Shown piece after piece: positions 33,406-58,761 of a stretch of 64,000 nucleotides of DNA. The translations under genes were made by a program, and so were the position numbers. The DNA is taken from positions 103,251 to 167,250 of IMG/VR virus record IMGVR_UViG_3300031994_000013. One strand, written 5' to 3'. This DNA is from a virus (Duplodnaviria > Caudoviricetes). Under the pieces are notes generated by a model. That model was given only the letters and a program-made list of their open reading frames with translations. It was not told the origin of the DNA and did no database searches. The stretch's first letter is position 1; each line of letters starts with the position of its first letter.

Positions 33406-33434
33406 TTGACTTTTTTCAAATTTTATGATATAAT
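33406..33434 (+). promoter_or_regulatory. sigma-A-type promoter, extended -10
   Basis: TTGACT-17-TATAAT with TG. Confidence 0.8.
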
Positions 33435-33510
33435 TATTATGTTGAAAGGGGAAAGGAACCCAATCAACGAAATATAAATTGCGGGTAGGGAACCGCAAGG
33501 AGACTATATT

Positions 33511-33846
33511 ATGGCTATTAAAATTTATTCAGACAAAACTAATAAGTATTATGATACCGTTCAGGCGGCAGAAGATGCGGAATTTAAGCTAAAGGAGCAA
33601 GAAAACCGCGATAAGATTCTCGCTGAGCGTAAAGCGGCTGAACTAAAGGAAAAGAAGGAGCAGGAAGCTGCCGAGCGTAAGGCTGCGGCCGACAAAGTTG
33701 AAAGCGCGCGTAAGGCGATGGTTGAAGCTCAGAGGAAGTATCGTGAGGAACTTGAGGCTTTTATTAAACAATATAAGACCTATCACTATTCTTCTAATAA
33801 GGTTGAAGACATTCCTATTCTCTTTGATTTATTTGATTGGCTATAA
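33511..33846 (+). CDS. charged coiled-coil protein
   Basis: strong RBS, biased codons. Confidence 0.7.
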   Translation: MAIKIYSDKTNKYYDTVQAAEDAEFKLKEQENRDKILAERKAAELKEKKEQEAAERKAAADKVESARKAMVEAQRKYREELEAFIKQYKTYHYSSNKVEDIPILFDLFDWL

Positions 33847-33872
33847 TAATTAGGCGGCATAACCGCCTATAT

Positions 33873-33943
33873 GCACCATTGATGTAGTGGTAACATTGCT
33901 GCCCTCCAAGCAGCCTTCGCCCGTTCAAATCGGGTATGGTGCT
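33873..33943 (+). tRNA. tRNA-Gly(TCC), C33 variant
   Basis: acceptor GCACCAT/ATGGTGC, U73, loop CCTCCAA. Confidence 0.85.
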
Positions 33944-33944
33944 C

Positions 33945-34290
33945 GCGCCATTTCTTCAAATCTGTATGGTGCAAAAACAGATTTGACGTTGGGGCTATGG
34001 AGCAAAACGCTAGAAGAAATTGCTACCGTGGTTTGCGATAATAACCGCCAAGAGCTTATCTTGCCTTGTAGGTCATTTCCGGAGTGACATAAGATTCTTC
34101 TCTATCTACTATGCCGATAGCATGAAGGTATAGGCGTGTATCACAGCGCGAAATGAATCGTGGAGAATACGGCATTGATAATCCGCTCGGCTTGCCTTCG
34201 AGATAGGCAACGCGTACTTGACCCGCGAATCAAGAACGCAGCCGTTTATAATTTGAGTAGAACTGACAATCCTATAAAAATTATAAACGG
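33945..34290 (+). ncRNA. putative structured ncRNA
   Basis: several nested stems, no credible ORF. Confidence 0.5.
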
Positions 34291-34395
34291 TTTTTATTTG
34301 ACTTTTGATAGAAATTATAATATAATATTATTTAGAAAATGACAAAAGATTATGTAGAGATAATACACAATTAGTAAGGTTGCTTGTAAAAATAT

Positions 34396-34424
34396 TTGAC
34401 TTTTAATAAAAATTATGTTATAAT
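34396..34424 (+). promoter_or_regulatory. sigma-A promoter, duplicated at 34583-34611
   Basis: identical ATTTGACTTTTAATAAAAATTATGTTATAATAAATAT twice. Confidence 0.85.
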
Positions 34425-34625
34425 AAATATACAAAAGAAAGGAATGGAAAATATGCTAATTGAACAAGATAATGAAAAAGAAAATCTTTATAAAATTATT
34501 GATTTTCTAATGGAAGAAATCAAAAATTTACGAAGGGAAAATGCTCGATTAGTAGAACTTCTTGAAAAGAAAGAATAACCATTTGACTTTTAATAAAAAT
34601 TATGTTATAATAAATATGTTGTTAA

Positions 34626-34696
34626 GGGGATTTAGTTTAACGGTAAAATAGATGCTTTGCAAGCATTTGTCATCAGTTCGATTCTGATAGTCTCCA
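34626..34696 (+). tRNA. tRNA-Ala(TGC)
   Basis: cloverleaf, G3:U70. Confidence 0.9.
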
Positions 34697-34697
34697 T

Positions 34698-34770
34698 TGC
34701 GGGATGGCCAAGTGGTTAAGGCAATTGGCTCATAACCAATAGACCGTGGGTTCAAATCCCACTCCCGCTA
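34698..34770 (+). tRNA. tRNA-Met(CAT), initiator-like
   Basis: loop CTCATAA; 1:72 mismatch; lacks the three G-C anticodon-stem pairs. Confidence 0.85.
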
Positions 34771-34775
34771 TTTAG

Positions 34776-35396
34776 TTGTCGGTATTCTTCTGTAAAAACC
34801 GTCACTGCTGGTCAGTTCTACGATGCAGAAAGCAGTATAAACACGGGGCTGTAGAAAAGATAAAGCGAAAAGGTAGAGGCACTGCCTGGGTTCGAGTCCC
34901 AGCGGGTGGCGTGGAGCGTAGAGCCAAAACCCTGATGCACTTAGAGTCTAGCTTCGCTTGAGGGCGGCCACCCAAGAGCGCATACTGAGCCCATAGAGAG
35001 TGGGCGGTGGGGCACGCCACCTTAAACTTAAAGGTGCATCCGCATATCGTTTGCGGTATATAACCATTCTTTGAAATGGTAATCTAGAGGCTATGGTAAG
35101 AGGACCAGATAAGTAGTTGATAGTGAAACAATAACCTTGGCTGAAAAAGAGGATGGAAGGAAAAGGCCCGATTCCTTACCAAATAGCGCTAAAAATTGGT
35201 AAAGCGATGCGGTTCAATCGCACCTCTCACACAGTGTAGGCCACATTGCCTTTGGTGGGTTTGTATTTGGGTAAGACACCTGAATATTGGCAAAGGCGCA
35301 AATGCGTCGGAAAGCCCAATTTCCCAACATACTTTCATGCGTGGGTGGAATAACAAGAGAAAGCGCAGCTTTCGGTCTGTGGTTAATAAAACCGAA
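34776..35396 (+). ncRNA. putative large ornate ncRNA
   Basis: about 620 nt, GC-richer than flanks, many hairpins, embedded T-arm. Confidence 0.6.
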
Positions 35397-35456
35397 TAGG
35401 CGGTAGCAGCAATACTTATAGAAAATTTTGGGAATTAAAATTTTTTATGCCGCCTA
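35397..35456 (+). ncRNA. CAGCAA/Y-like RNA 1
   Basis: TAGGCGGTA/TGCCGCCTA stem + CAGCAA. Confidence 0.65.
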
Positions 35457-35463
35457 GTTATGT

Positions 35464-35535
35464 GGCGTGTTAGTCAAGTGGTAAAGATAACTGGTTTTCA
35501 CCCAGTTGGCTGGAGTTCGACTCTCCAACACGCTA
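35464..35535 (+). tRNA. tRNA-Glu(TTC)
   Basis: cloverleaf, loop TTTTCAC. Confidence 0.9.
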
Positions 35536-35854
35536 TATTGGCAACGTCCGTTACAATTGCTAGCGCGAGCGAGTATGAAAAGACTACGCTTGGGGCGACC
35601 TCTGAGCTAATCCGGAAAGGAAAGCGTGCGGCGGCTAGGCGTCGTAGAAAGTCCAAACTTTCTATGGTAAGGAAAAACTTATTTAATATTGCCACCCAAT
35701 GGGAGCCTCTAAATAAGTCAAGAGTAGAAAAACCCTAGTATTTTTATTGGAATAGAGGGTAATCTTTTGCGGAGATTACGGAAAATGAAAACCGCTCCCG
35801 CCGAACTGCCGGTAGTAGCAAACACCTATTCGTAGGTAAAGGCAGCAGTTTTAA

Positions 35855-35927
35855 CAAGGTGTATCGTAGTAGCTAACGGGCGTCACTTGGGATGACGAAA
35901 TCGGGAGTGCAAATCTCTCCACCTTGA
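35855..35927 (+). tRNA. tRNA-Pro(TGG)
   Basis: cloverleaf, loop CTTGGGA. Confidence 0.88.
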
Positions 35928-36210
35928 TTTCTGCTTGTGTTTAATGAGCACGAGCCTTGTAAAAGAAAATATAGTTCAGCGGGATACTGGCTTATACTAG
36001 TTGACATTTTCTTTAATACAATCTCCAGCGTGAGTAAAAACCGCCTTGGACTGGGTGAGATGCCTATCGTTGCGGCCGCCAACGAAGTAACGTAAACAGT
36101 TATGAGCGGTTATAATTACCTTGCTATCAGGTCTTAATTTAGGATAGCTACTTATAGGTAAGACTATACGGGTGCGGCGTTCGTCAGCTCAGAGATAGCA
36201 TGCCGAATTT

Positions 36211-36351
36211 GCCCGGTTAGCTCAGTCGGTAGAGCATGCGGCTGTGACAGAGAGATGATTTGGTAATCATGTGAGGGACGCCCACGTTGCGAGTTCAATT
36301 CTCGCCTCTGTATTAACCGCAGTGTCGGGGGTTCGAGCCCCTCACCGGGCG
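36211..36351 (+). tRNA. tRNA-Asn(GTT) interrupted by tRNA-like insert 36246-36313
   Basis: TGCGG CTGT|TAA CCGCA after removal. Confidence 0.9.
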
Positions 36352-36450
36352 GTCAAGTTGGAGGATAGAACAGGCAGCTATCGCCCATTGTTAGGAGATG
36401 CGGGAGTGTCGCCCCGCCCAGCATTAATTTTATAAGAATGAGGTAAATTT

Positions 36451-36999
36451 ATGGCTCTAAAAATTCTCAGCCCATGGCAGGTTTGGTATGCTGATGTAAA
36501 GGCAATGTTTCAGGAAGATAATGAAATTGGTGTAATATTTGATAATGATACATTAGAGCTTACTGTGTATGTAGAGAATGCAGATAAGGCTGATGCCCTA
36601 GGACAGCTTCTACCTACTGAAAAGCATTTTGGTAATCAGGTTGTAAAGGTTAGCGTCATTCCCGCGAATGTACCTAAGACCGCATTAAAGCTAAATCGTG
36701 CGAATCTTTATGAAAGGGCATTTGCTGATAATCCTGCACTAGAAAAGGTAGTGACAATTGAAGGCGTTATGTCTAATACACTAACTTATGTTGTCTTTAA
36801 GAAACAAGTAGTACAGTATTATATTGATGACCTTGGCGATATCTATGGTAATAGAACTACTTTGTATCAAGAGATTGCAAAGAATATATTTGAAGCAGCG
36901 GAAGGCGTGTTTTTCTGTACGGCAAATGAAACAGAATTTAAGTTAAATATGACTAATCATGGTTGGATTACAACTACTTGTTGTAGTTCAAGTAATTGA
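36451..36999 (+). CDS. hypothetical phage protein
   Basis: 182 aa, VFKKQVVQYY.DDLGD. Confidence 0.7.
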   Translation: MALKILSPWQVWYADVKAMFQEDNEIGVIFDNDTLELTVYVENADKADALGQLLPTEKHFGNQVVKVSVIPANVPKTALKLNRANLYERAFADNPALEKVVTIEGVMSNTLTYVVFKKQVVQYYIDDLGDIYGNRTTLYQEIAKNIFEAAEGVFFCTANETEFKLNMTNHGWITTTCCSSSN

Positions 37000-37058
37000 C
37001 TTTTTTCTAAATTTATGCTATAATAAATATATCAAAAGGGAACGAAAGTTCCCAATAT

Positions 37059-37130
37059 GGCCCTATGGTCTAATGGCTATGATACGTGACTGTCTATCAC
37101 GAGGTTGCAGTTCAATTCTGCGTAGGGTCG
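37059..37130 (+). tRNA. tRNA-Asp(GTC)
   Basis: cloverleaf, G73. Confidence 0.9.
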
Positions 37131-37138
37131 TTGCCTTA

Positions 37139-37258
37139 AAGACGGTTCAGCAATTATTTTGAAAATTTATGCAGTATAATAAAGGGGCGGGTTCGAATCC
37201 CGCAGCATAAGGTGGGCACTTATGTTTGGTGTAGCGGTAGCATTCATTTCGCCGTCTT
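37139..37258 (+). ncRNA. CAGCAA/Y-like RNA 2 with permuted tRNA domain
   Basis: AAGACGG/CCGTCTT; T-arm, closed acceptor, D-arm order. Confidence 0.8.
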
Positions 37259-37264
37259 GATTTT

Positions 37265-37352
37265 CCTACTCAAGCATAATTGGTACATGCCACGGCCTTA
37301 TAAGCCGGAGACCCTCACAAGGTTAGTCCACGTTCAAGTCGTGGGAGTAGGA
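37265..37352 (+). tRNA. tRNA-Ile(TAT) with long variable region
   Basis: CCTACTC/GAGTAGG, loop CTTATAA, A73. Confidence 0.8.
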
Positions 37353-37355
37353 TTT

Positions 37356-37472
37356 TAGACCTGTCAGCAATTATTTCTTTTGCATGTGGAGCACGTATGT
37401 GATGGTTCGAATCCATCTTTGGGCCGATGCGCCCAAATAGCTCAATGGTAGAGCGCGTAATAAGTGGGTCTA
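37356..37472 (+). ncRNA. CAGCAA/Y-like RNA 3 with permuted tRNA domain
   Basis: TAGACC/GGTCTA; GATGGTTCGAATCCATC, TTTGGGC/GCCCAAA, TAGCTCAATGGTAGAGC. Confidence 0.8.
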
Positions 37473-37551
37473 GTTTTTATATGGAACTAATCTATCCTGA
37501 GTTCCTGCGGTTCAAGGATAGGGCGGTGGCTGCCCAAAGTCGCAATTATAT

Positions 37552-37669
37552 GGCCCCTTAGCCCAATTGGCAGAGGCAATAGACCATCAATAGCCAGAGC
37601 GAAATGAGGTCATCACTCATATTGATGTTCAAAATCTATCAAGTATCAGTTCGAATCTGATAGGGGCTA
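37552..37669 (+). tRNA. tRNA-Leu(CAA) interrupted by mini-tRNA insert 37585-37628
   Basis: ATAGA C|TCAAAA TCTAT after removal. Confidence 0.85.
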
Positions 37670-37748
37670 TTAAAAAAATCGCGGGACGCGAAGAAAAAAG
37701 AGTAATGCGTCTGCTTATATAATACTATTTATGTAGGAGGCGATAATT

Positions 37749-38354
37749 ATGAAAAAATGGGAAAAATTCTCTGAAAAAGAGTTGCTTGAGATTATTCAAA
37801 ATAGTCGAAGTTATAGAGAAGTCGCTCAAAAATTAGGTTATAATCCTGATAGTGGTAGTGGTATGAAAGCTATTAAGGATATGATAGAGACGAAACAATT
37901 TGATATATCGCATTTTTTAGGGCAGGGTTGGAATAAAAATAATTTTGATTATTCGCGTTTCCAGTATGGGAAAAATATTAAAGCCGTATTAATGTTAGAT
38001 GCTTTAATTAATTTACGCGGCAGAAAATGTGAAAAATGCGGTTTAACAAAATGGGAAAATTTTCCTATTCCACTAGAAGTACATCATATTGATGGAGACC
38101 ATTTGAATAATACATTAGATAATTTACAAATTCTTTGCTGCAATTGTCATGCTTTAACAGCGAATTTTAAAGGACGAAATCAGCTTAGCGTAGAACGACA
38201 AAATGAAAAAGTATCTGAAGAACAATTAGTAGAAGCATTAAAGACAACTTCTAATGTTCGTCAAGCTCTTTTAAAAGTTGGCTTGACTAGTCGTGGGCAC
38301 AATTATGATAGAGCATATGATTTGATATATAAATATCAAATAAAACAACAATAA
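37749..38354 (+). CDS. HNH homing endonuclease
   Basis: CEKC, LEVHHIDGDHLNN..NLQILCCNCH. Confidence 0.9.
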   Translation: MKKWEKFSEKELLEIIQNSRSYREVAQKLGYNPDSGSGMKAIKDMIETKQFDISHFLGQGWNKNNFDYSRFQYGKNIKAVLMLDALINLRGRKCEKCGLTKWENFPIPLEVHHIDGDHLNNTLDNLQILCCNCHALTANFKGRNQLSVERQNEKVSEEQLVEALKTTSNVRQALLKVGLTSRGHNYDRAYDLIYKYQIKQQ

Positions 38355-38359
38355 TATTA

Positions 38360-38462
38360 TAGGCGTTTTCAGCAATTACCTTTATAGGTTATGGGTTCGA
38401 GTCCCATTTTGCAATCCTTTTTGCGAATCGTCCAATAGGTAGGACAATAAATAAGACGCCTA
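38360..38462 (+). ncRNA. CAGCAA/Y-like RNA 4 with permuted tRNA domain
   Basis: TAGGCGTTT/AGACGCCTA; ATGGGTTCGAGTCCCAT, TTTGCAA/TTGCGAA, GTCCAATAGGTAGGAC. Confidence 0.8.
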
Positions 38463-38791
38463 GTATTTTAAAGATGGATTTTTTCCATCTTATTTTTATA
38501 ATTGACTTTTCTCTAAAATTATGATATAATTTTTTTAGAAAAAAGGAAATGAGGAAATAATATGGATAAGGAAACTCTAAGTAGCACTGCGACAAAAAGT
38601 CAATTTATTGATTCTATTTATAATTGGTTAATGCGCACGCTCGATGAGAAGGGCAACGGACAATATAAGGAATGTTTTCAAAAAGAGGGCTCAAGTATAA
38701 TTTGTTCTCTTCCAGATAATTATTTTAATAGTTATACTATTCCTCATGGCACTAAAATTGAAATGAAATTTATTAGTAAAAAGGGATAATA

Positions 38792-39226
38792 ATGAAAATT
38801 TATACTTCTTATTTCGCGCAAATGCGTAATTTTCCTAAAAATCTTGTTTCGCTTTCAACCGCAGTTTGGAATCCTAAATGGTTGCCGCTTGGGCGCGATA
38901 AGCAAGGTCATATTTGGCTAGATATTCCGCCGCTAAAGCCAGGATATAATTGTAATGGCTTATGTAATGGAAAATGTAATCCAAAGCATCCACAGGATTG
39001 TGCTTTTCTTCAAGAATATCGCAAACAGTTGAACGGTATAGATATTCATAATATTCTAAATGAATTACAAGTTTTAAAAAATGATATTGAAGTTGCGGAG
39101 AGCCTAGAGAATGTAGAGTTTGTGCTATTATTTTTTGAGACTCCGGATAATCCTTGTAGTGAGCGGCAAGTCGTTATTGAATGGCTTAAAGAAAATAATA
39201 TCGAAACTGAGGAATGGAGAAAATGA
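38792..39226 (+). CDS. DUF488-like protein
   Basis: MKIYTSYF, LLFFETP..CSER..W. Confidence 0.6.
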   Translation: MKIYTSYFAQMRNFPKNLVSLSTAVWNPKWLPLGRDKQGHIWLDIPPLKPGYNCNGLCNGKCNPKHPQDCAFLQEYRKQLNGIDIHNILNELQVLKNDIEVAESLENVEFVLLFFETPDNPCSERQVVIEWLKENNIETEEWRK

Positions 39227-39719
39227 TAAAAATTATTAAGCATGGGCACGCGCAATATCATATGACATGTAAATTTTGTGATTGTTTATTCTCTTTTGAA
39301 GACAGTGATATAAAATTTTCTGGTAATCAGCGAGATTGGATAGAATATATCGAATGCCCAGAATGCGGGCATGAGATTGATATTGTTAATCGTGCGTTCT
39401 ATAAGTTTAAGGAGAGTAAAGACTAATATAATGAAAGATAGGAAAATTTTTTTTATAGCAGTGTTAATTGCTATATTACTTTTTATAGGCGTAGTATTTT
39501 TACAAGAATCGTCCTGTAACATAGTATATAATAATGGCATTTGTACAAGATGCGGAGGACACTATATTTTTCAGCAGGCGGTAGGACATCGATATAATAT
39601 TCGATATATTTACCAATGTGATAAATGTGGCAAGTTAATTGAAATTAATTCTATTCGTTAATTATTTGACTTCTTTCTAAATTTATGCTATAATTATTAT
39701 AGAAAGTGAGGGAAAGAAA

Positions 39720-40067
39720 ATGAAGGAATACAGTATGAAATCTCATAATCGCCGCGCTCATCAGCGTTGGCTTAATAAGTTTTGCCGCGATGTTAATAAA
39801 TCTATTTATGATGATAATCTGTGGCGCGGGCGCTTTGTTGTAGAACAGGTTTCTACTCAGATGGATTGGTTTGAGGATAAAAGCGGTGGTATCCTTCGTT
39901 GTGTTCTTCGCTTTCGTGATAAGAAAACTGGCTGTACTAAGCTTTGTTATACCGATTGTCTTGAAGTTGCTTGGAATATGTTTTTTCAGATGAATGACTT
40001 TATTGTAAAAGATTGTGCTGTTTGGGATAAGGAAGACCCTTATAAGGAGATTGAATCATGGAGATAA
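39720..40067 (+). CDS. hypothetical phage protein
   Basis: promoter and RBS upstream; DNLWRGRF. Confidence 0.65.
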   Translation: MKEYSMKSHNRRAHQRWLNKFCRDVNKSIYDDNLWRGRFVVEQVSTQMDWFEDKSGGILRCVLRFRDKKTGCTKLCYTDCLEVAWNMFFQMNDFIVKDCAVWDKEDPYKEIESWR

Positions 40068-40265
40068 AGAGACCCGTTACTGTAGAGTTTAATTATTATA
40101 ATGATAATAACGAATTTGATGACGATGTTAATTTAACTTTTAGAACTACGCCAGATATGACTATTGGGCAATTACACGCTTTTTGTAAGCGTTTTGCTAT
40201 TGCACTTAGTTTTTCACCAAAGCAGGTTGAAGAAGCTTTTGGTGAAGATATAGAAGATAGAATTT

Positions 40266-40350
40266 AGAAGGGTGCCTGAGTGGTCAATAGGAGCGGTTTG
40301 CTAAATCGTCGTAGGGTAACCTACCGCAAGTTCGAATCTTGTCCCTTCTG
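40266..40350 (+). tRNA. tRNA-Ser(GCT)
   Basis: class II cloverleaf, G73. Confidence 0.9.
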
Positions 40351-40431
40351 TTCGCCAATTTAACTGGTTGGCGCGCCAGCTATGGATTAAATAGCGACCC
40401 AGCTCGCGGGCATTCTAAATAGCGAGCACGT

Positions 40432-40503
40432 ACCCTTCTAGGCTAACGGAAAGACCATACGGCTACGAACCGTAAAATGAAAGTTCGATTCTTTCGGAGG
40501 GTG
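40432..40503 (+). tRNA. tRNA-Arg(ACG)
   Basis: TACGG CTACGAA CCGTA; imperfect D stem. Confidence 0.8.
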
Positions 40504-40511
40504 TCAATTAT

Positions 40512-40621
40512 GCGGTGGTATCCAAGCAGACAAAGGGGCCAACCGGTAAGTTTGGTGCCTACGCCGGTATGCTAGCTAGAACCGTGGGCTTCGCAGGTGC
40601 AAATCCTGACCCGCCGCACCA
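40512..40621 (+). tRNA. aberrant Tyr-like tRNA with enlarged variable arm
   Basis: GCGGTGG/CCGCCGC-ACCA; loop CGGTAAG. Confidence 0.5.
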
Positions 40622-40629
40622 TTTATTAT

Positions 40630-40713
40630 GCGTCAGTGTGACTAGTAGCGAGGTCAGGTGACTGTAAATCACCCACATTAGAAACATCGGTGGTGCAATT
40701 CCATCCTGGCGCA
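40630..40713 (+). tRNA. tRNA-Tyr(GTA)
   Basis: GGTGA CTGTAAA TCACC. Confidence 0.85.
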
Positions 40714-40720
40714 TTAGCCG

Positions 40721-40792
40721 AGACCAGTCAGCAATAATTGTATTTTTTGCTAGAAATGCAGCGGGTCGGCTCCGCCTAAGATGAACTGGTCT
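40721..40792 (+). ncRNA. CAGCAA/Y-like RNA 5
   Basis: AGACCAGT/ACTGGTCT + CAGCAA. Confidence 0.7.
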
Positions 40793-40798
40793 AGTTTT

Positions 40799-40946
40799 GT
40801 GCCCGTAGCTCAGTTGGTAGAGCACTTGACTTTGGGGTAGTAATGTAAAGAGCATACTATTAGAGACGTCTAATAGAGGACAAGGTGCAATACCTTGATA
40901 CTCCACCATAATCAAGGGGTCGCGAGTTCGAGCCTCGCCGGGCACA
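40799..40946 (+). tRNA. tRNA-Lys(TTT) interrupted by tRNA-like insert 40834-40908
   Basis: CTTGA CTTT|TAA TCAAG after removal. Confidence 0.9.
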
Positions 40947-40950
40947 TTAT

Positions 40951-41022
40951 AGGAGCTTAGGACAATGGCTAGTCTTTCTGTCTCCAAAACAGACGATGGG
41001 CGTTCAAATCGCTCAGCTCCTG
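40951..41022 (+). tRNA. tRNA-Trp(CCA)
   Basis: cloverleaf, loop CTCCAAA. Confidence 0.9.
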
Positions 41023-41038
41023 TCACTTATGAAAAAAT

Positions 41039-41114
41039 GCGTCTGAACCCTGACGGTCGGGGGAGGGCCTGCAAAACCCTTTTTTATTAGTTGGTTCAAC
41101 TCCAACCAGGCGCT
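41039..41114 (+). tRNA. tRNA-Cys(GCA)
   Basis: loop CTGCAAA, U73. Confidence 0.85.
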
Positions 41115-41842
41115 TAAAGGAGAGATAATATTATGAATGAACTTAAAAGATTAGTTAACCAAAAGACTGACCGCCCCGTAACACCTACGACTACAACAAC
41201 CGTGCCAGTCTCACAGTCTGTAACAGCCACTTCCCTTCAATATGGTTGGATTTGTCCTAAATGTGGCTCTGTGATGGCACCAAATCAAACAAGTTGTATT
41301 TTCTGCATTCCAACTTTTAATGTTACGACTGCGACGCCAAATATGTCACCTGTAGTAATTTGTACTAGTAAAGGTTATAGTCGGGACTGAAATATTTGAC
41401 TTTTATTCAAATTTGTGCTATAATATATACATAAAGAATGAAAGAAAGGATTGATAACAGTATGCGTAAGTTGGTTTTTTCTTCTTCTTGGAGTAGGGTT
41501 AAGCAAGCGAAGATGCTAGATGACCCTCAGTAACTGGCGCTTTATCATCAGTAGGTGATACGAAATTACGGTAAGTCGTTATACGGCGCCACCGTTTTTT
41601 TAAAAAAAGAAAGGTAGAATAAGTTATGTTTAGTTATGTAGTTACTTTTTTCGACAATGAAATTAGAGCAACCACGACCGAAAAGGGCATTGTGGCGGCG
41701 GAAACCTATGGCAAAGCCGCGGATAGGCTTGTGAGCTTTTATGGAAAATCTTTTCTAATGACTATGGCTCTTACTGAACTTAATGACATTCTAACCGAAG
41801 AAGAAATTACAGAAGAGTTTGAAACTCAGGGAGAAGATTAAA

Positions 41843-42088
41843 ATGTATCATCGTACTCATATTCGTTTAATTACACAAACCGATGCAGCAAATTTCGTAG
41901 CGAGTCTTAATCGTGATGGCACGACTGACCACTATGTGCTTGAAACAGTAGATGGTAAGGTCCGTGTTAGTGCCCGTTCATTACTTGGCGTGCTTTATTT
42001 TGTTTCAGAGCATAATAAGGAAACTTATTTAGTTAATGAAACTAATGATGGAGTGATTCCAAGCGGTATCGACCAGTATCGTATTTAA
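41843..42088 (+). CDS. HPr-like protein
   Basis: AANFV...VSARSLLGVL (Ser46-like motif). Confidence 0.6.
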   Translation: MYHRTHIRLITQTDAANFVASLNRDGTTDHYVLETVDGKVRVSARSLLGVLYFVSEHNKETYLVNETNDGVIPSGIDQYRI

Positions 42089-42101
42089 TGCGATACTTTG
42101 A

Positions 42102-42232
42102 TGGCGTGTAGCCAAGTGGTTAAGGCACAGGACTTTCAGGCAATAGCATAAGTAATGCCATAGAATAATAGTTCAAATCTATTTTGCCTGTGACTCCTGT
42201 ATTCGTAGGTTCGACCCCTACCACGCCAGCCA
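42102..42232 (+). tRNA. tRNA-Gln(TTG) interrupted by tRNA-like insert 42137-42191
   Basis: CAGGA CTTT|GAC TCCTG after removal; encoded CCA. Confidence 0.92.
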
Positions 42233-42237
42233 TTTAT

Positions 42238-42299
42238 TAGGCTTTGTCAGCAACTATTACAAAAATTTGACTTGAAATCAAAGGAACAAAGAAAGCCTA
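42238..42299 (+). ncRNA. CAGCAA/Y-like RNA 6
   Basis: TAGGCTTT/AAAGCCTA; internal TTTGA CTTGAAA TCAAA. Confidence 0.75.
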
Positions 42300-42309
42300 G
42301 AAATTTTTA

Positions 42310-42409
42310 TAGACCAGCACAGCCATTTATTTTAACAATGGATAAATTATTTTTTTCTCAATAAAAAAAATATAGAAGGTTCAAATCCTTCAAAATTAAA
42401 ACTGGTCTA
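42310..42409 (+). ncRNA. CAGCCA/Y-like RNA 7
   Basis: TAGACCAG/CTGGTCTA; CTCAATA loop + T-arm GAAGGTTCAAATCCTTC. Confidence 0.7.
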
Positions 42410-42764
42410 GTTTTTATTACAAGAAAGGACGCAAAATAATGGAAGTAATGTATCATCGTAAGAACGGTAAGCGCTATGAAGTTTATGATTATATAACAGA
42501 TAAGCATACCATTGCTATTTGTTACGATACGGCACAGGCGGGGCAGTGCGGCCAGGGTTGGTGTAGAATTCCTTTGAAAGAATTGGTTCCAGAATGTCAT
42601 GCAAATAAGACTACAGGGCAATTTGAGTCTAACACTATTAAAAATGCCATTAAACGAAATTTACAACCAGTAGCTTGGCGTTGTACTGATGGTACAGTAT
42701 TTGACCATTCTAAGATTGATGAAGCAATTGAATATCAAAGAACACTTATGACGACGGAGCAAGA

Positions 42765-43205
42765 ATGAGACAGTTAATAATCGCGCGAAAAGATTTACAG
42801 ATGAGCCCTGGTAAATTGGCGGCACAAGTAGCACATGCAAGTTGGGCATTTTTATCGCAGCAAATTCGCAGCTGTACTATTAACGAACAAGATACTCAAA
42901 ATACGTGGATTAAATTATGTATTAATACTGATACGTATAATGAATGGTTTTGTGGTATCTTTACAAAAACTGTTTGCGAAGCTAAAAATTATAATCAACT
43001 GATGAAAGCAGTTGACTATGCACGCGAATTGGGGTTAGAAGAGGGAGTAGATTTTTTCCTCATTAAAGATGCTTGTCTCACGGAGCTTACTCCCGAAGAA
43101 ACTGATGAAAATGGTGTTGGACGCACATTAACTTGTATTGGTTTTCGTCCATTACCTGACGAAATCGCCCATGCGATTTCAAAGCATTATCAACTTTATA
43201 AGTAA
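42765..43205 (+). CDS. pth2: peptidyl-tRNA hydrolase Pth2 family
   Basis: RKDLQMSPGKLAAQVAHA, IKDACLTE, TCIGFRP. Confidence 0.9.
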   Translation: MRQLIIARKDLQMSPGKLAAQVAHASWAFLSQQIRSCTINEQDTQNTWIKLCINTDTYNEWFCGIFTKTVCEAKNYNQLMKAVDYARELGLEEGVDFFLIKDACLTELTPEETDENGVGRTLTCIGFRPLPDEIAHAISKHYQLYK

Positions 43206-43208
43206 ATA

Positions 43209-43338
43209 ATTGTGGTGGCGGAATAGGTAGACGCTAGACGGTTTGAACCCGTGCATCAAGGAAGACTTGGCTTGGCTATGAGGTCATAGATTTTACTCAG
43301 AAGGAAATCATGTAAGGTGCAAATCCTTACCCACAATT
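43209..43338 (+). ncRNA. tRNA-like RNA (Leu-type D/T arms, no normal anticodon arm)
   Basis: ATTGTGG/CCACAAT, GGCGGAATAGGTAGACGC, GTAAGGTGCAAATCCTTAC. Confidence 0.7.
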
Positions 43339-43427
43339 TAGAATGTAACGGCTGATTACATATACATTTTCGCAATCTATATAGATACAATCAAGTTACC
43401 CCATGCGATGCAAGGTAACATCAGCCA

Positions 43428-43513
43428 TCGGCCTACACAGCAATTAATTTCAAGAAAATTCTATCTGTTGAAGAAAGCATATTCTAGCGGGTTGAAAACC
43501 CGTAATAGGCCGA
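43428..43513 (+). ncRNA. CAGCAA/Y-like RNA 8
   Basis: TCGGCCTA/TAGGCCGA; GCGGG TTGAAAA CCCGT. Confidence 0.75.
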
Positions 43514-43518
43514 GTTAT

Positions 43519-43708
43519 GCTCTTGTAGCTCAATGGTAGAGCAGCGCACTTGTCGAGTTAGTTTAAAGTAAAACACCCGAATCACAGGGAAAAGACCGTA
43601 TGATAAACTAATTGATTGACGAATCAATTAGGCGAAGATATGTGAGTTCGTAACTCACACTCGGCTCCAGTAATGCGCAGGTTGTAGGTTCAAGTCCTAT
43701 CGGGAGCT
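43519..43708 (+). tRNA. tRNA-Thr(TGT) interrupted by tRNA-like insert 43552-43669
   Basis: GCGCA CTT|GTAA TGCGC after removal. Confidence 0.9.
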
Positions 43709-44526
43709 TTTAACTGTCATCTTAGGAAGTGTTATTTATGAGGACGACGGCAGAAAAACGACATAATGATTATACGAAAGCAATCCGTAAGCGTAGGATT
43801 GACCGCGAGACACAGCCCAGTGGATATGACTGGTACAATAATCTTCATCAATATAGTAAAAATAAGATTCATTGTTCTTGTCCAATGTGTTCTGTGAAAA
43901 CTAATAATCGCGGCAATAATGGTTGGAAACCCAATACCTTATGGCGTATCACCGATCAAAAGAAGTTGGATGCTTTACAATATAACGAGGAAGATGAATA
44001 ATCTTCCTCGTTTTTTATTTGACTATTTCTTAAAATTATGATATAATTTATATACAATATTGGATAGGCGAAATATTAATCAAGAAAAGAGGGAGCCATA
44101 ATGGAAAAGAAAGAATTAGTTGCAGGTAAGCGCTATCAATGGCCAGATGTAACTCCTGGCGGCCGCATGATTAATGGTCTTTTTACTGGAAAATACGAAA
44201 AGAACGGTAACGCTTTATTACAGTGTCGTAATGGCGACATCTGGTCTGTTTCACCACAAAATTGTGAGCCAATGCCAAGAAAGGAAAAATGATATGAAGA
44301 ATTTTATTAAATTAACTAATACTGATGGGACTGCACTTTATATTAATTATAAAATTATTGAAAGTTTATCTCAACATAAAGATAAAGATTATACTTATAC
44401 TATCCTAGCCACAATTGGGTCAGAAGATGGTTTTTATAGAGTAAAAGAATCACCAGAAGCAATTCTAGCATTAATTGATGTTTTGACAAATTAAAAAAAA
44501 TATAGTATAATGAAAGGAATGATAGT

Positions 44527-45012
44527 ATGCGAAAGCCTATTCTTTATATACTCTGCGGTTGTCCAGGATGCGGAAAAACATATTGGGCAAATAAATTTAT
44601 GTATAATCTTATTAATACAAAGTATGTTTCGCGCGATGAAATTCGCCTTTCTTTACTTAATAATGATGAAGAATATTTTTCACACGAAGAAGAAGTGTTT
44701 ACTAAATTTGTAGCTATGATAAGAGCTAATTTAGTGGATGGATATGATTGTATTGCAGACGCCACTCATTTAAATGTAAAATCTCGCAAAAAGCTTATCC
44801 ATGCTCTTGATTTTTATGGTAAATTAGATTGTCAAATTATTTTTGTATATTTCAACGCTCCTTTGGAAGTATGTCTTGGCCGCAACGAACAGCGTGAAGG
44901 TCGTGCTCGTGTTCCTGTAAATGTAATTCAATCTATGCGAGAACGCTTTCAAAAGCCAGCTATGACAGAGGATGAAAGATGTATTGGACTTATGCTAATG
45001 AAAGGATATTAA
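44527..45012 (+). CDS. polynucleotide kinase-like P-loop protein (AAA_33)
   Basis: GCPGCGKT, SRDEIR, DATH, RNEQR. Confidence 0.85.
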   Translation: MRKPILYILCGCPGCGKTYWANKFMYNLINTKYVSRDEIRLSLLNNDEEYFSHEEEVFTKFVAMIRANLVDGYDCIADATHLNVKSRKKLIHALDFYGKLDCQIIFVYFNAPLEVCLGRNEQREGRARVPVNVIQSMRERFQKPAMTEDERCIGLMLMKGY

Positions 45013-45290: not shown

Positions 45291-45956
45291 ATGGGAAAGA
45301 TTTATAAAGTTACAAATAAAATTAATGGTAATATTTATATTGGCCAAACACGACAACCAATTAATACTCGTTGGTTAAAGCACTGTTATTCAGCAGAAAC
45401 CTCTAATGATAAAGATTATTTTTGTCCTCTACATAATGCTATTCGTAAATATGGACGAGATAGTTTTCTAATAGAAGAAATTGAAGACTGTGATAATGAT
45501 TTATTAAATGAACGTGAACGTTATTGGATTCAATTTTATGATAGTTATAATAATGGTTATAATGCCGCTTTGGGTGGAGAAGGGCATACTAAATATGACT
45601 ATGATAAAATTATAGATTATTTTTTAAAACATGGCAATAATCTTTTAGCTACTTGTCAAGAATTTAATATTTATGACCAAGTGGTGTATACAGCTTTACA
45701 ATCTAAAAATATTGATTATAAAGCATTAAAAAATATAAATCCAAAATGTAAATATGATAAATGGATTCTATTAGTAGAACACAATCTTATTTTCAAACAC
45801 ATAACGGACATTGACCTTTATTTACATAAAAATAATGCACATGGAAATATACGACGATGCCTAAATGGAATTACAGAAAAAGCTTATGGCTATCATTGGA
45901 AGGAGATAGAAAAAGATGGAAATCTTTTTAACCTCGGATACTCATTTTTCACATAA
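45291..45956 (+). CDS. GIY-YIG homing endonuclease
   Basis: KIYKVTN..YIGQT, RW..H, E..WI, GYN; NUMOD1-like AYGYHW tail. Confidence 0.9.
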   Translation: MGKIYKVTNKINGNIYIGQTRQPINTRWLKHCYSAETSNDKDYFCPLHNAIRKYGRDSFLIEEIEDCDNDLLNERERYWIQFYDSYNNGYNAALGGEGHTKYDYDKIIDYFLKHGNNLLATCQEFNIYDQVVYTALQSKNIDYKALKNINPKCKYDKWILLVEHNLIFKHITDIDLYLHKNNAHGNIRRCLNGITEKAYGYHWKEIEKDGNLFNLGYSFFT

Positions 45957-46509
45957 TCAACAATTTATATATGAGTCCCGTGGTTTTACAAATGTTCAAG
46001 ACATGAATGAGACAATAATGGAAAATTGGAATAAAATTGTACCATATGACGCACTTATTTATCATCTTGGAGATATGGCATTAAATAATTTAGATGATGC
46101 AATTAAATATATTAAAAATTTAAATGGTAAAATTATTTGGCTTCGGGGTAATCATTGTACTGATAATAAAATTACTAAAATTCTTGAAAACTGTCCAAAT
46201 GTAACAATGCCAAATGAAATGTATGCCACTGTACTGAAATATAGGAAACTAACTTGTTATCTTTCACACTATCCTACCTTGACAGCCAATTACGATGATA
46301 AACATTTCAGCCAGCATGTAGTGAATTTTCACGGTCATACTCATCAGCAAACTAACTGGCTTAATCCAACGAATCCATTTATGTATCACGTGGGAATGGA
46401 TTCTCATAATTGCACACCAATCCATATTGAAGAGGCAATAAGTGACATTCGCAACAGATGGAATGAAATCGGTCAGCTTCCAGTTTCTATGCAGCCAGAA
46501 GATATATGA
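45916..46509 (+). CDS. calcineurin-like metallophosphoesterase
   Basis: SDTH, HLGD, GNH, SHYP, HGHTH. Confidence 0.9.
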   Translation: MEIFLTSDTHFSHNQQFIYESRGFTNVQDMNETIMENWNKIVPYDALIYHLGDMALNNLDDAIKYIKNLNGKIIWLRGNHCTDNKITKILENCPNVTMPNEMYATVLKYRKLTCYLSHYPTLTANYDDKHFSQHVVNFHGHTHQQTNWLNPTNPFMYHVGMDSHNCTPIHIEEAISDIRNRWNEIGQLPVSMQPEDI

Positions 46510-57432: not shown

Positions 57433-58761
57433 ATGTCTTATTATGGTTATGTAGTAAAGGTGGAGCATCTGCGCCCGCACTCTAATGCTGATAGGCTTCA
57501 GGTGGCTACTTTCTTCGGAAACGATACTATCGTTAGCCTTGATACTCAGCTTGGCGAGATGGGTATTTACTTTCCTGTAGACGGTCAGCTTTCTGAGCGT
57601 TATTGCGCAGTAAATGATCTGGTGCGCCGTAAGGATGAGAACGGTAACTACTGCGGTGGTTATCTTGACCCTGACAAGCGCAACATCAAGGCTATCAAGC
57701 TTCGTGGCGAGAAGTCTGATGGTTTGTTTATGCCTATCACTTCACTGGCCGATTTCTGCACTATCTCCGATCTTAAGGTGGGTGACCGCATTGATGTTCT
57801 GAATGGTGAGGAAATTTGCCACAAGTATATTCCTCATAGCAATGCATCCGTGCAATATCATGGCGCGAAGGCACCTCGCAAGGCAAAGGCTAACATTGCT
57901 CCTACCTTCTACGAGCACGTAGATACCGAGCAGCTTGCTTATAACCTCGATAAGTTTAAGGTCGGCGATACTGTACAATTGACCCTGAAGATGCACGGCA
58001 CTTCTGGCCGTACTGGCTATCTGCCTCTACTTCAGAAGCGTTCTATCTGGGATAAGATTTTCCATCCTCACAAGGAGATTTATGAGTATGGTTATATAAC
58101 CGGAACTCGTCGTGTAGTTCTTGCGGGCGACCGCAAGGGCGGTTACTACGAGTCTGATGACTTCCGTCGCGCGATGGCGGCTAAGTTTGAGGGCAAGCTT
58201 CGTAAGGGCGAGGTAGTGTATTACGAAATCGTGGGCTTCCAGGGCTACGAGGGCGCACCTATCATGTCTGAGGTTCAGAACTCTAAGGTGAAGGACCCTG
58301 AGTTCTCTAAGCAGTATGGTAAGACCACCATATTCTCTTATGGTTGCGCGGTTGAAGGTGGATATACTGACGACCAGCCTTGCTGCGAAGTATATGTCTA
58401 TCGTATGACTATGGTAAACGCCGATGGTGATGTGGTAGAGTATTCTCCCGCACAAATTAAGGAGCGCTGCGAGCAGATGGGCGTTCATACTGTAATGAAG
58501 TTCGAGACCTTCGTAATTCCTGAGAATATAAATCCCGGCGAGTATGTTCTCCGTAAGGTAGAACAGTACTTTGATGGTCCTGACCCTATCGGTAAGACCC
58601 ATGTGCGCGAAGGTGTAGTGGCGCGTATCCTTAACCGTCCTAACTTCGCAGTTTATAAGCATAAGAATTTTAGTTTCAAGGTTCTTGAAGGCATCGCTAA
58701 GGATGAGGCCGTTGCGCCGGATATTGAGGAGGCTCAGGAACTAATTGAAGAAGGAGAATAA
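57433..58761 (+). CDS. ATP-dependent RNA ligase (Rnl2/DRB0094-like) with N-terminal OB-like domain
   Basis: HSNADRL, KLRGEKSDG; motif I KMHGTS, YEIVG, REGVV, KHKN..F. Confidence 0.88.
   Translation: MSYYGYVVKVEHLRPHSNADRLQVATFFGNDTIVSLDTQLGEMGIYFPVDGQLSERYCAVNDLVRRKDENGNYCGGYLDPDKRNIKAIKLRGEKSDGLFMPITSLADFCTISDLKVGDRIDVLNGEEICHKYIPHSNASVQYHGAKAPRKAKANIAPTFYEHVDTEQLAYNLDKFKVGDTVQLTLKMHGTSGRTGYLPLLQKRSIWDKIFHPHKEIYEYGYITGTRRVVLAGDRKGGYYESDDFRRAMAAKFEGKLRKGEVVYYEIVGFQGYEGAPIMSEVQNSKVKDPEFSKQYGKTTIFSYGCAVEGGYTDDQPCCEVYVYRMTMVNADGDVVEYSPAQIKERCEQMGVHTVMKFETFVIPENINPGEYVLRKVEQYFDGPDPIGKTHVREGVVARILNRPNFAVYKHKNFSFKVLEGIAKDEAVAPDIEEAQELIEEGE

Follow-up and report, generated by a model that had tools for sequence, protein, structure and literature searches.

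Bare anticodon stem-loops carried by a shared RNA scaffold in tRNA clusters of a phage and its relatives

The window analyzed in the present study is a 64-kb stretch of DNA that forms the final part of a complete 167,250-bp phage record in IMG/VR (IMGVR_UViG_3300031994_000013), in which terminal repeats are present, and its tRNA gene cluster contains a family of small RNA elements that we call frames. In a frame, a helix of 7-10 bp joins both ends of the RNA and is followed by the motif CAGCAA and then by a variable cargo. Our main finding is that bare anticodon stem-loops are displayed on this common scaffold, often with a constant stem in which the triplet changes. An earlier reading of the letters alone (the sequence-only reading) had pointed to three such hairpins between positions 42238 and 43513 and had suggested that they act as decoys or sensors, with anticodon nucleases or modification enzymes as targets. 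This observation is well founded for two of the three and for the whole family. A decoy function of the anticodon hairpins is plausible as judged from sequence, and we tentatively favor, without regarding it as probable, the reading that frames are a family with parts of tRNA as cargo, in which those with anticodon hairpins mimic the targets of host defense nucleases.

Frame RNAs in the window and in related phages

Frames were located by a script that searched for CAGC[AC][AC] with one strand of a helix of 7 bp or more ahead of it, and eight were found in the tRNA cluster of the window (33.9-43.7 kb, + strand), all of them on the + strand (Table 1). Under strict rules applied to the whole phage genome, 7/9 CAGCAA sites on the + strand of the cluster had a closing helix (7 bp or more, within 125 nt) versus 3/124 elsewhere (Fisher p = 3e-8), and frames therefore did not arise by chance. 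For six of the eight frames, a tRNA gene is no more than 7 nt away; copy 6 begins 4 nt past the gene ending at 42233, and copy 8 ends 5 nt ahead of that starting at 43519. The helix ends are semi-conserved (W-A/C-G-R-C ... G-Y-C-U-W), and a G directly after the helix, followed by a U-rich run, was present in 32 of 55 frames. Five frames folded better than shuffled sequences (0 to 3 of 200 shuffles as good), while copies 2, 3 and 6 did not (15, 8 and 34 of 200 shuffles as good, respectively). Neither ARAGORN nor Infernal (RF00005) called a tRNA overlapping 42237-42409 or 43428-43513; copy 6 contains an anticodon-type arm only, and copy 7 a T-arm without an adjacent acceptor stem.

Relatives were gathered as 11 related IMG/VR loci through the peptidyl-tRNA hydrolase PTH2 and as further loci through conserved-frame anchors, and the clusters of ten records were extended. 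Labels beginning with L denote related loci, with the position after the colon, and labels beginning with G denote phage records. When run on the clusters of the relatives, the script detected frames in every one of them, on the strand of the tRNA genes. After filtering for the tRNA strand, a distance of up to 1.5 kb on either side of the cluster and a length of up to 125 nt, the set that was kept comprised 58 distinct elements from nine records, three of which carry a variant motif and a few of which are probably false. Members of the family are present in 18 or more phage records of IMG/VR, and another phage has six frames inside 2 kb. A 15-mer scan of IMG/VR returned 90 stretches, with 11 true frames (nine distinct records) among those listed, and the other rows were rejected as chance matches in coding DNA. 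The 18-mer of the copy 5 subtype was found in five stretches only, one of them from a new record. For the subtype that resembles the small RNA YrlA, at least 120 stretches of genome contigs matched and no frame was present among the 120 listed, which does not in itself show absence from bacteria; wherever a closing helix or a T-loop was present among those listed, the sequence resembled coding DNA from high-GC bacteria.

The cargo varies among a YrlA-like module of T-arm, hairpin and D-arm; an entire cloverleaf closed by a second helix, as at L011:2144-2215, which Infernal called as a tRNA with 43.9 bits; a conserved GGGUCGGCUCC hairpin; a lone hairpin whose 5-bp stem closes a 7-nt loop; A/U stems with loops containing GGG; and a lone T-arm (L140:3207). 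Cargo of the GGG type was noted at 35397-35456 in the window and at L212:1905, L128:10329, L133:1898, L010:1890 and L117:19850, with the loops GGGAATT, ATTGGGA, TTTGGGT, TTGGGGA, TTAGGGA and AGAGGGT. This loop could be a copy of the D-loop or a loop that pairs with the CCA end.

Anticodon-type loops on a shared stem

Hairpins inside the 58 frames were listed as all 5-bp stems, with at most one G-U pair, that close a 7-nt loop. Ten of 68 such hairpins had loops of the anticodon type YU-NNN-RA ([CT]T-NNN-[AG]A), and none of 5000 shuffles of the frame interiors reached this number (mean 0.50, maximum 5). The same loop type accounted for 45 of 1687 hairpins (2.7%) elsewhere in the phage genome, 35 of 1187 (2.9%) in tRNA-free loci of the relatives and 2.9% of the hairpins in shuffled frame interiors, and it was present in 189 of 245 real tRNA genes of the same loci. 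Two of the ten fitting loops (TTAGGGA and CTGATGA) are doubtful; the eight remaining correspond to a binomial p of 4e-5 at a rate of 3%. Enrichment of this loop across homologues, which the sequence-only reading had set as the test of its proposal, was found as a roughly 5- to 8-fold excess. Among 67 listed frame hairpins, 24 matched the T-loop pattern, namely, 23 real T-arms and the loop CTCAATA of copy 7.

More is learned from the pattern within groups than from the count. Three syntenic orthologues beside tRNA-Trp share the helix AAGACCTGT and the hairpin stem and have the loops CU-GUA-AA, CU-GUU-AA and CU-UUU-AA. A scan for CAGCAA...GACT-NNN-AATC, which is biased by design and gives figures that are lower bounds, detected frames with a closing helix in at least seven further records (G011-G017), displaying GGU, GUU, UCU, UUU, UAU, UGA, GAU and CGU. 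In those loci and in one locus reached by another anchor, loops with UUU were also present on the frames L140:394 and L126:4928, which do not match this pattern and were found with no demand on the loop. The stem TTWGA/TCWAA occurred in 9/17 displayed hairpins, with six different triplets, versus 1/286 real tRNA genes, and U33, A37 and A38 were invariant in the alignment of the 17. The commonest triplets were UUU and GUA. The idea that the displayed triplets complement tRNAs missing from the phage fails, as record G002 combines tRNAs for UUU, GUA, GAA and GCA with hairpins for the same four triplets.

These patterns bear on whether the frame is simply a leader-trailer helix that processes or stabilizes the RNA around tRNA genes, with the lone hairpins being functionless remnants of decayed genes. 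Some frames do enclose a full cloverleaf that Infernal or ARAGORN called as a tRNA (L011:2144-2215, described above, and Cys(gca) at 10687 of L020), the cargo grades from cloverleaf through elbow and single arm to unrelated hairpin, and the window phage lacks a tRNA-Phe gene and yet has a GAA hairpin. However, independent remnants should differ in their stems, which is not the case for the nine hairpins with TTWGA/TCWAA; the orthologues hold positions 32, 33, 37 and 38 while the triplet varies, their stems change by compensating pairs, and the excess over shuffles is large. We consider decay an unlikely origin of the lone hairpins.

The three hairpins of the window

The three hairpins are present exactly as the sequence-only reading wrote them, with pyrimidine-U at positions 32-33 (loop positions 1-2) in each. 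Its placement of them on CAGCAA RNAs stands for copies 6 and 8 and needs amendment for copy 7, which has CAGCCA. Their description as isolated anticodon stem-loops is supported by the relatives for the UGA and GAA hairpins and fails for CAA, and the full set of features (5-bp stem, 7-nt loop, pyrimidine 32, U33 and purine 37) was found in copies 6 and 8.

The hairpin of copy 6 appears to be a good copy of an anticodon arm on the common stem of the family. Its loop, CTTGAAA, recurs on the frame L212:3549 of another phage, and its stem is common to frames displaying UUU, GUU, UCU and UAU. This stem is weak and missing from the unconstrained minimum-energy fold of a frame that 34 of 200 shuffles match in folding. 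In copy 7, the combination CU..UA is found in only 1/245 real tRNAs, the stem has 7-9 bp of A-U pairs alone with two possible registers, and the orthologues L116:18722 and L117:7944 keep the T-arm, with the loop kept in 0/2. The CAA hairpin is not counted because of its U37, its all-A/U stem in two registers and the loss of its loop in orthologues.

The hairpin of copy 8 is identical at 14/17 positions to the tRNA-Phe(GAA) arm of a related phage, the best match among 245 real anticodon arms, and the GAA loop recurs at the anticodon-arm position of the cloverleaf frame L012:13617. The loop also fits the T-loop pattern U-U-N-R-A as U-U-G-A-A, with the G-C closing pair present and C56 missing, and the hairpin is 13/17 identical to the T-arm of copy 2 by manual count. 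In an Rfam comparison, the YrlA model aligned it to the T-arm with 15.3 bits (E = 8.5), a partial match that extends into the next tRNA. The copy 8 frame has no D-arm to partner a T-arm.

We also considered that the hairpins only look like anticodon arms. In this reading, copy 8 would hold a degenerate T-arm and copy 7 an A/T run, or else TTGACT in copy 6 and TTGAAA in copy 8 would be -35 boxes. The promoters of the phage read TTGACT-17-TATAAT at nine sites, a weak promoter-like site at 43492-43521 (9/12) overlaps the copy 8 hairpin and contains its loop, which fits U-U-N-R-A, and copy 7 has the U37 and the unconserved loop described above. On the other hand, no promoter-like site of the sigma-70 type is reported at copy 6, the site at copy 8 is far below the 11-of-12 class of this phage, 9/12 matches are frequent by chance (56 found, 38 expected), and the same loops recur on the frames of other phages. 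That all three are look-alikes with such other causes is very unlikely in our judgment.

Possible functions of the displayed hairpins

In the mechanism that we propose, frames would be cut from the transcript of the tRNA operon by RNase P and the 3' end enzymes that trim the neighboring tRNAs, and the helix pairing the ends would give them stability. The helix and CAGCAA may be bound by a common partner, and the cargo would present a part of a tRNA to proteins that recognize that part. Frames with anticodon hairpins may bind or occupy host defense nucleases of the anticodon arm and would thereby supplement the tRNAs and the RNA repair of the phage. These nucleases are the best candidate targets because they read this part of the tRNA, because some of them cut isolated stem-loops, because UUU, GUA, GUU and CGU are both known targets and displayed triplets, and because the phage invests in tRNAs and RNA repair. 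A decoy function is made plausible by the RNA kinase, phosphoesterase and RNA ligase that the phage carries. Activated Cas13b has been shown to cleave isolated anticodon stem-loops (excerpt of PMC13692257), and AriB of the PARIS system cuts tRNA-Lys(UUU), Thr and Asn within the anticodon arm (excerpt of PMC12409363). The authors of the latter study raise the possibility that viral tRNAs additionally act as inhibitors (same excerpt).

Several points weigh against the proposed mimicry of nuclease targets. Host tRNA is abundant and would compete with any decoy, the stems of the hairpins are weak and rich in A/U, and at least 12 triplets are displayed, which exceeds the known targets of nucleases. 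T-arms, elbows, GGG-loop hairpins and unrelated hairpins also serve as cargo of these frames, so that the family as such is not anticodon-specific, and among the hairpins originally cited, that with CAA is unsupported. The sequences behind the loop bias are related rather than independent and represent approximately 6-7 independent groups; 8/17 hairpins in the stem count came from the GACT...AATC scan, in which two of the five pairs are set by the pattern itself, and the variation on both sides of all five pairs was seen in an alignment whose 17 rows were chosen for pairing. Homologues of the ligase were found in only 5/15 other frame-bearing records and those of the kinase in 9/15, with two complete genomes having neither. 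Contigs from an RNA library of a sheep-gut sample match 41555-43486 identically, in a form in which ends, strand and level are not visible and DNA carry-over is possible.

The hairpins may instead bind or titrate enzymes that modify the anticodon loop (MiaA, t6A and TGT types) or aminoacyl-tRNA synthetases. Determinants of the i6A and t6A enzymes are A37 and, before it, A36 or U36, and TGT recognizes U33-G34-U35. All displayed loops have A37, with A36 or U36 before it, and the GUA and GUU loops contain U33-G34-U35. Furthermore, anticodon mimics that bind synthetases are known (excerpts of PMC6542539 and PMC3384309). The presence of A37 says little because approximately 9/10 real tRNAs here have it, and no synthetase or modification gene adjoins the frames. 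Since SerRS and LeuRS do not read the anticodon, the UGA (Ser) and CAA (Leu) hairpins cannot serve as synthetase handles. A role with such enzymes appears improbable.

Contact between RNAs was also considered, in which a Y-U-N-R U-turn loop allows the triplet to pair with a codon-like target, such as a T-box specifier or a complementary anticodon. The U-turn requires U33 and a purine at position 37, Y-U-N-R is the general fast-pairing loop of antisense RNAs, and the anticodon arm and elbow are what stem I of the T-box contacts. The displayed loops have U33 and purine 37 with the triplet as the variable part, and cloverleaf-type frames have the anticodon arm and elbow without a free acceptor end. 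The likeness to tRNA nevertheless extends beyond Y-U-N-R, as the stem has exactly 5 bp, the loop has A37-A38, and G30-A31/U39-C40 are the pairs that tRNAs encoded by these phages typically have, and we assign only a small probability to pairing as the function.

A broader form of the nuclease-decoy reading, which we regard as possible but doubtful, is that of a programmable RNA anti-defense cassette in which the frame and the hairpin stem are constant and the triplet is exchanged, giving each phage a panel of anticodon-arm, elbow and T-arm decoys tuned to the tRNA-cutting nucleases of its host. If true, the cassette would be an RNA counterpart of the anti-CRISPR decoy RNAs directed at tRNA-targeting immunity. 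The cleavage of tRNA is now seen as a common strategy of phage defense (PrrC, PARIS, retron/Septu effectors and Cas13), which phages are known to counter with replacement tRNAs and RNA repair; RNAs displaying anticodons might be a third answer. The specificity of such decoys, namely, the triplet, would be legible from the sequence and would allow the tRNAs attacked by the hosts to be predicted, and frames would supply ready inhibitors or probes for anticodon nucleases. Whatever their function, frames represent a sizeable and apparently undescribed class of structured RNA that accounts for much of the "non-coding" space of large phage tRNA clusters.

Comparison with described RNAs

The nearest described RNAs are Y RNAs of the YrlA type (RF02553; Chen et al. 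2014, excerpt of PMC4201824), which are also small RNAs with paired 5' and 3' ends, an internal loop and a module made of tRNA parts. In copies 2-4 and related frames, the match to the YrlA model covers its T-arm, hairpin and D-arm, whereas copies 6 and 8 are without this module and copy 7 has the T-arm only. The best score in the window was 36.1 bits (38360-38465), compared with a gathering score of 69, and relatives scored 32-36 bits; copies 6-8 gave nothing against Rfam at E up to 10 beyond the 15.3-bit chimeric stretch mentioned above. The Ro60-binding stem of YrlA is unmatched in frames, which have CAGCAA instead, and many frames carry only an anticodon hairpin, which YrlA lacks. YrlA is encoded next to Ro60, and a search for TROVE/Ro60 (PF05731) in which the controls gave matches found no such gene in 16 frame-bearing phage records (0/1 for the window phage and 0/15 for the others). 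Frames thus seem to lack both the Rfam score and the Ro60 partner of this class.

The counter-defense tRNAs of phage T5, in which tRNAs for Lys, Thr and Asn oppose PARIS AriB (excerpts of PMC12409363 and PMC11464382) and tRNA-Tyr acts against PtuAB of retron Eco7 (excerpt of PMC11555353), are, like frames, encoded in a phage tRNA cluster. The identities UUU, GUU, GUA and CGU are shared between these tRNAs and the prominent displayed hairpins. The T5 tRNAs are complete, decode and replace the host tRNA that has been cut, whereas frames with a lone hairpin can neither be charged nor decode.

The thrS operator is an anticodon-arm mimic in an mRNA that binds its synthetase. An isolated anticodon-arm hairpin, as in frames, is similarly present in the mRNA of yeast HisRS (excerpt of PMC6542539). 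These mimics are located in the leader of the synthetase's own mRNA and are regulatory, while frames are free-standing between tRNA genes, form panels of triplets and include triplets of Ser and Leu, which synthetases ignore. The tRNA cluster of phage T4 produces the stable RNAs "species 1 and 2", which are small non-tRNA RNAs processed with the tRNAs, and frames resemble them, by description only, in being small non-tRNA RNAs of such a cluster. RNA-based anti-CRISPRs are phage copies of CRISPR repeats that act as decoys. The principle would be the same, a phage RNA copying the ligand of a defense protein, in another defense system and with another RNA, the decoy action of frames being our proposal.

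No description of scaffolded phage anticodon hairpins was found in full-text searches of the literature, although the supplements of a census of viral RNAs with 10,006 candidates (PMC10690425) may list the family, and frames match no Rfam family. They are apparently an undescribed variant of tRNA-mimicking small RNAs.

Genomic context

The phage was also detected in metagenome runs of sheep and goat gut. A BLAST comparison of 40000-44500 with 50,697 deposited phage records, in near and distant modes, gave no match. ARAGORN called ten plain tRNA genes in the cluster and five more once inserts were permitted. Copies 6-8 belong to a putative transcription unit that runs from a consensus phage promoter (41396-41424) to a terminator-like hairpin (43984-44012) and also holds three tRNA or tRNA-like genes and small open reading frames (ORFs), including that of PTH2.

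Table 1. Positions of the frames, hairpins, putative transcription signals and selected genes in the window.
Feature	Position	Strand	Remarks
Frame copy 1	35397..35456	+	A/U stem, loop GGGAATT
Frame copy 2	37139..37258	+	T-arm, hairpin, D-arm-like
Frame copy 3	37355..37473	+	YrlA-like T-arm, hairpin, D-arm; YrlA 30.4 bits
Frame copy 4	38360..38462	+	YrlA-like; 36.1 bits (gathering score 69)
Frame copy 5	40721..40792	+	Hairpin GCGGGTCGGCTCCGC; subtype conserved in 5 IMG/VR records
Frame copy 6	42237..42300	+	Closing helix TTAGGCTTT/AAAGCCTAG; CAGCAA 42248-42253; lone anticodon-type hairpin
Stem-loop TTTGA-CTTGAAA-TCAAA	42266..42282	+	Copy 6; triplet UGA, C32 U33 A37 A38
Frame copy 7	42310..42409	+	Closing helix TAGACCAG/CTGGTCTA; CAGCCA 42320-42325; A/U hairpin 42350-42370; T-arm 42375-42391
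Hairpin T7-CTCAATA-A7	42350..42370	+	Copy 7; triplet CAA, T-arm follows
Frame copy 8	43428..43513	+	Closing helix TCGGCCTA/TAGGCCGA; CAGCAA 43438-43443; terminal hairpin
Hairpin GCGGG-TTGAAAA-CCCGT	43487..43503	+	Copy 8; triplet GAA; anticodon arm or T-loop without C56
Promoter-like site TTGACT-17-TATAAT	41396..41424	+	11/12 matches, TG extension; heads unit of copies 6-8
Terminator-like hairpin	43984..44012	+	12 pairs, then T run; closes unit of copies 6-8
Peptidyl-tRNA hydrolase PTH2 gene	42765..43205	+	PF01981, 73.3 bits; between frames
Polynucleotide-kinase-like P-loop kinase	44527..45012	+	AAA_33 74.3 bits; phrog_505 84.2 bits
Metallophosphoesterase	45916..46509	+	phrog_547, 135.6 bits
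RNA ligase	57433..58761	+	phrog_968, 234.6 bits; Pfam RNA_ligase 22.3 bits, below cut-off of 27

No protein partner common to the frames emerged from the neighboring genes. The gene for PTH2 adjoins frames in six related loci and was not found in the stretches fetched from the remaining records. An ORF of the window, orf90 (43729-44001), recurs in six loci (L010, L012, L103, L110, L116 and L117); it matched no Pfam or PHROG family, and its Atlas clusters are annotated as "hypothetical protein" only.

A kinase, a phosphoesterase and a ligase together correspond to the activities of T4 Pnkp and Rnl1 in the repair of tRNA cut by PrrC. RtcB and the CCA-adding enzyme were not found in the phage, and a search with the T4 Rnl1 family, which gave no match in the phage or in any control genome, was uninformative. 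A GIY-YIG homing endonuclease gene (45291-45956) separates the kinase gene from the phosphoesterase gene, and an HNH endonuclease gene (37749-38354) is located within the tRNA cluster.

On the + strand at 33406-44047, the tRNA cluster is divided into short units by nine promoter-like sites of nearly identical sequence (TTGACT, 17 nt, TATAAT, in most cases with the TG extension). Rfam models matched three further sites in the cluster: a skipping-rope RNA at 36354-36425, with 51 bits exceeding the gathering score of 36.7, and sub-threshold matches to cow-rumen-3 at 35932-36076 (66.3 versus 86.7) and cow-rumen-4 at 33439-33497 (41.8 versus 48.5). A match similar to cow-rumen-3 is also present in a relative (L118:9806-9936). 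The stretches 33945-34260, 34772-35396 and 35537-35854, located between tRNA genes, are long, free of ORFs and rather rich in G+C, and matched nothing in Rfam at E up to 1; additional large structured RNAs may be encoded there. By eye, an element with paired ends (GGCTGAT...ATCAGCC), an inner hairpin (GTTACC...GGTAAC) and no CAGCAA was recognized at 43353-43427, between a tRNA-like gene and copy 8.

tRNA genes with inserts and other tRNA observations

Inserts of 50-121 nt in the anticodon loop were noted in the tRNA genes at 40799-40946, 42102-42233, 43519-43708, 37552-37669 and 36218-36305. The first of these has a body similar to tRNA-Lys, in which the insert apparently splits the UUU triplet; in contigs from other organisms, ...GACTTT runs straight into TAATCAAGG with no insert between. 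The inserts hold their own acceptor-like helix and T-arm, and 42137-42191 matched Rfam as a partial tRNA with 24.5 bits. An insert with the shape of a tRNA could be released by RNase P and RNase Z, and the 3'-OH and 5'-P ends left behind could then be sealed by the RNA ligase of the phage. Lak megaphages have comparable "enigmatic" tRNA introns, of which one possibly encodes a tRNA itself (excerpt of PMC6784885).

In the tRNA-like gene at 43209-43340, which no tool called as a tRNA, approximately 73 nt separate the D-arm from the T-arm, and this spacer contains a 4-bp arm with the loop TTTGAAC (UGA) followed by two or more extra hairpins. Its D- and T-arms alone are common to many contigs from other organisms (joints 43234-43310). 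Such joints, there and at 40824-40917, were rejected as evidence of transcripts; other letters stand between the two sides, and the contigs represent tRNAs of other organisms that share the D- and T-arms.

A tRNA with the amber-reading anticodon CUA, labeled "Pyl(cta)" by ARAGORN, is absent from the window phage and present in the relatives L010, L011, L012, L018, L020, L116, L118 and L133, and may reflect the recoding of TAG in part of this phage group.

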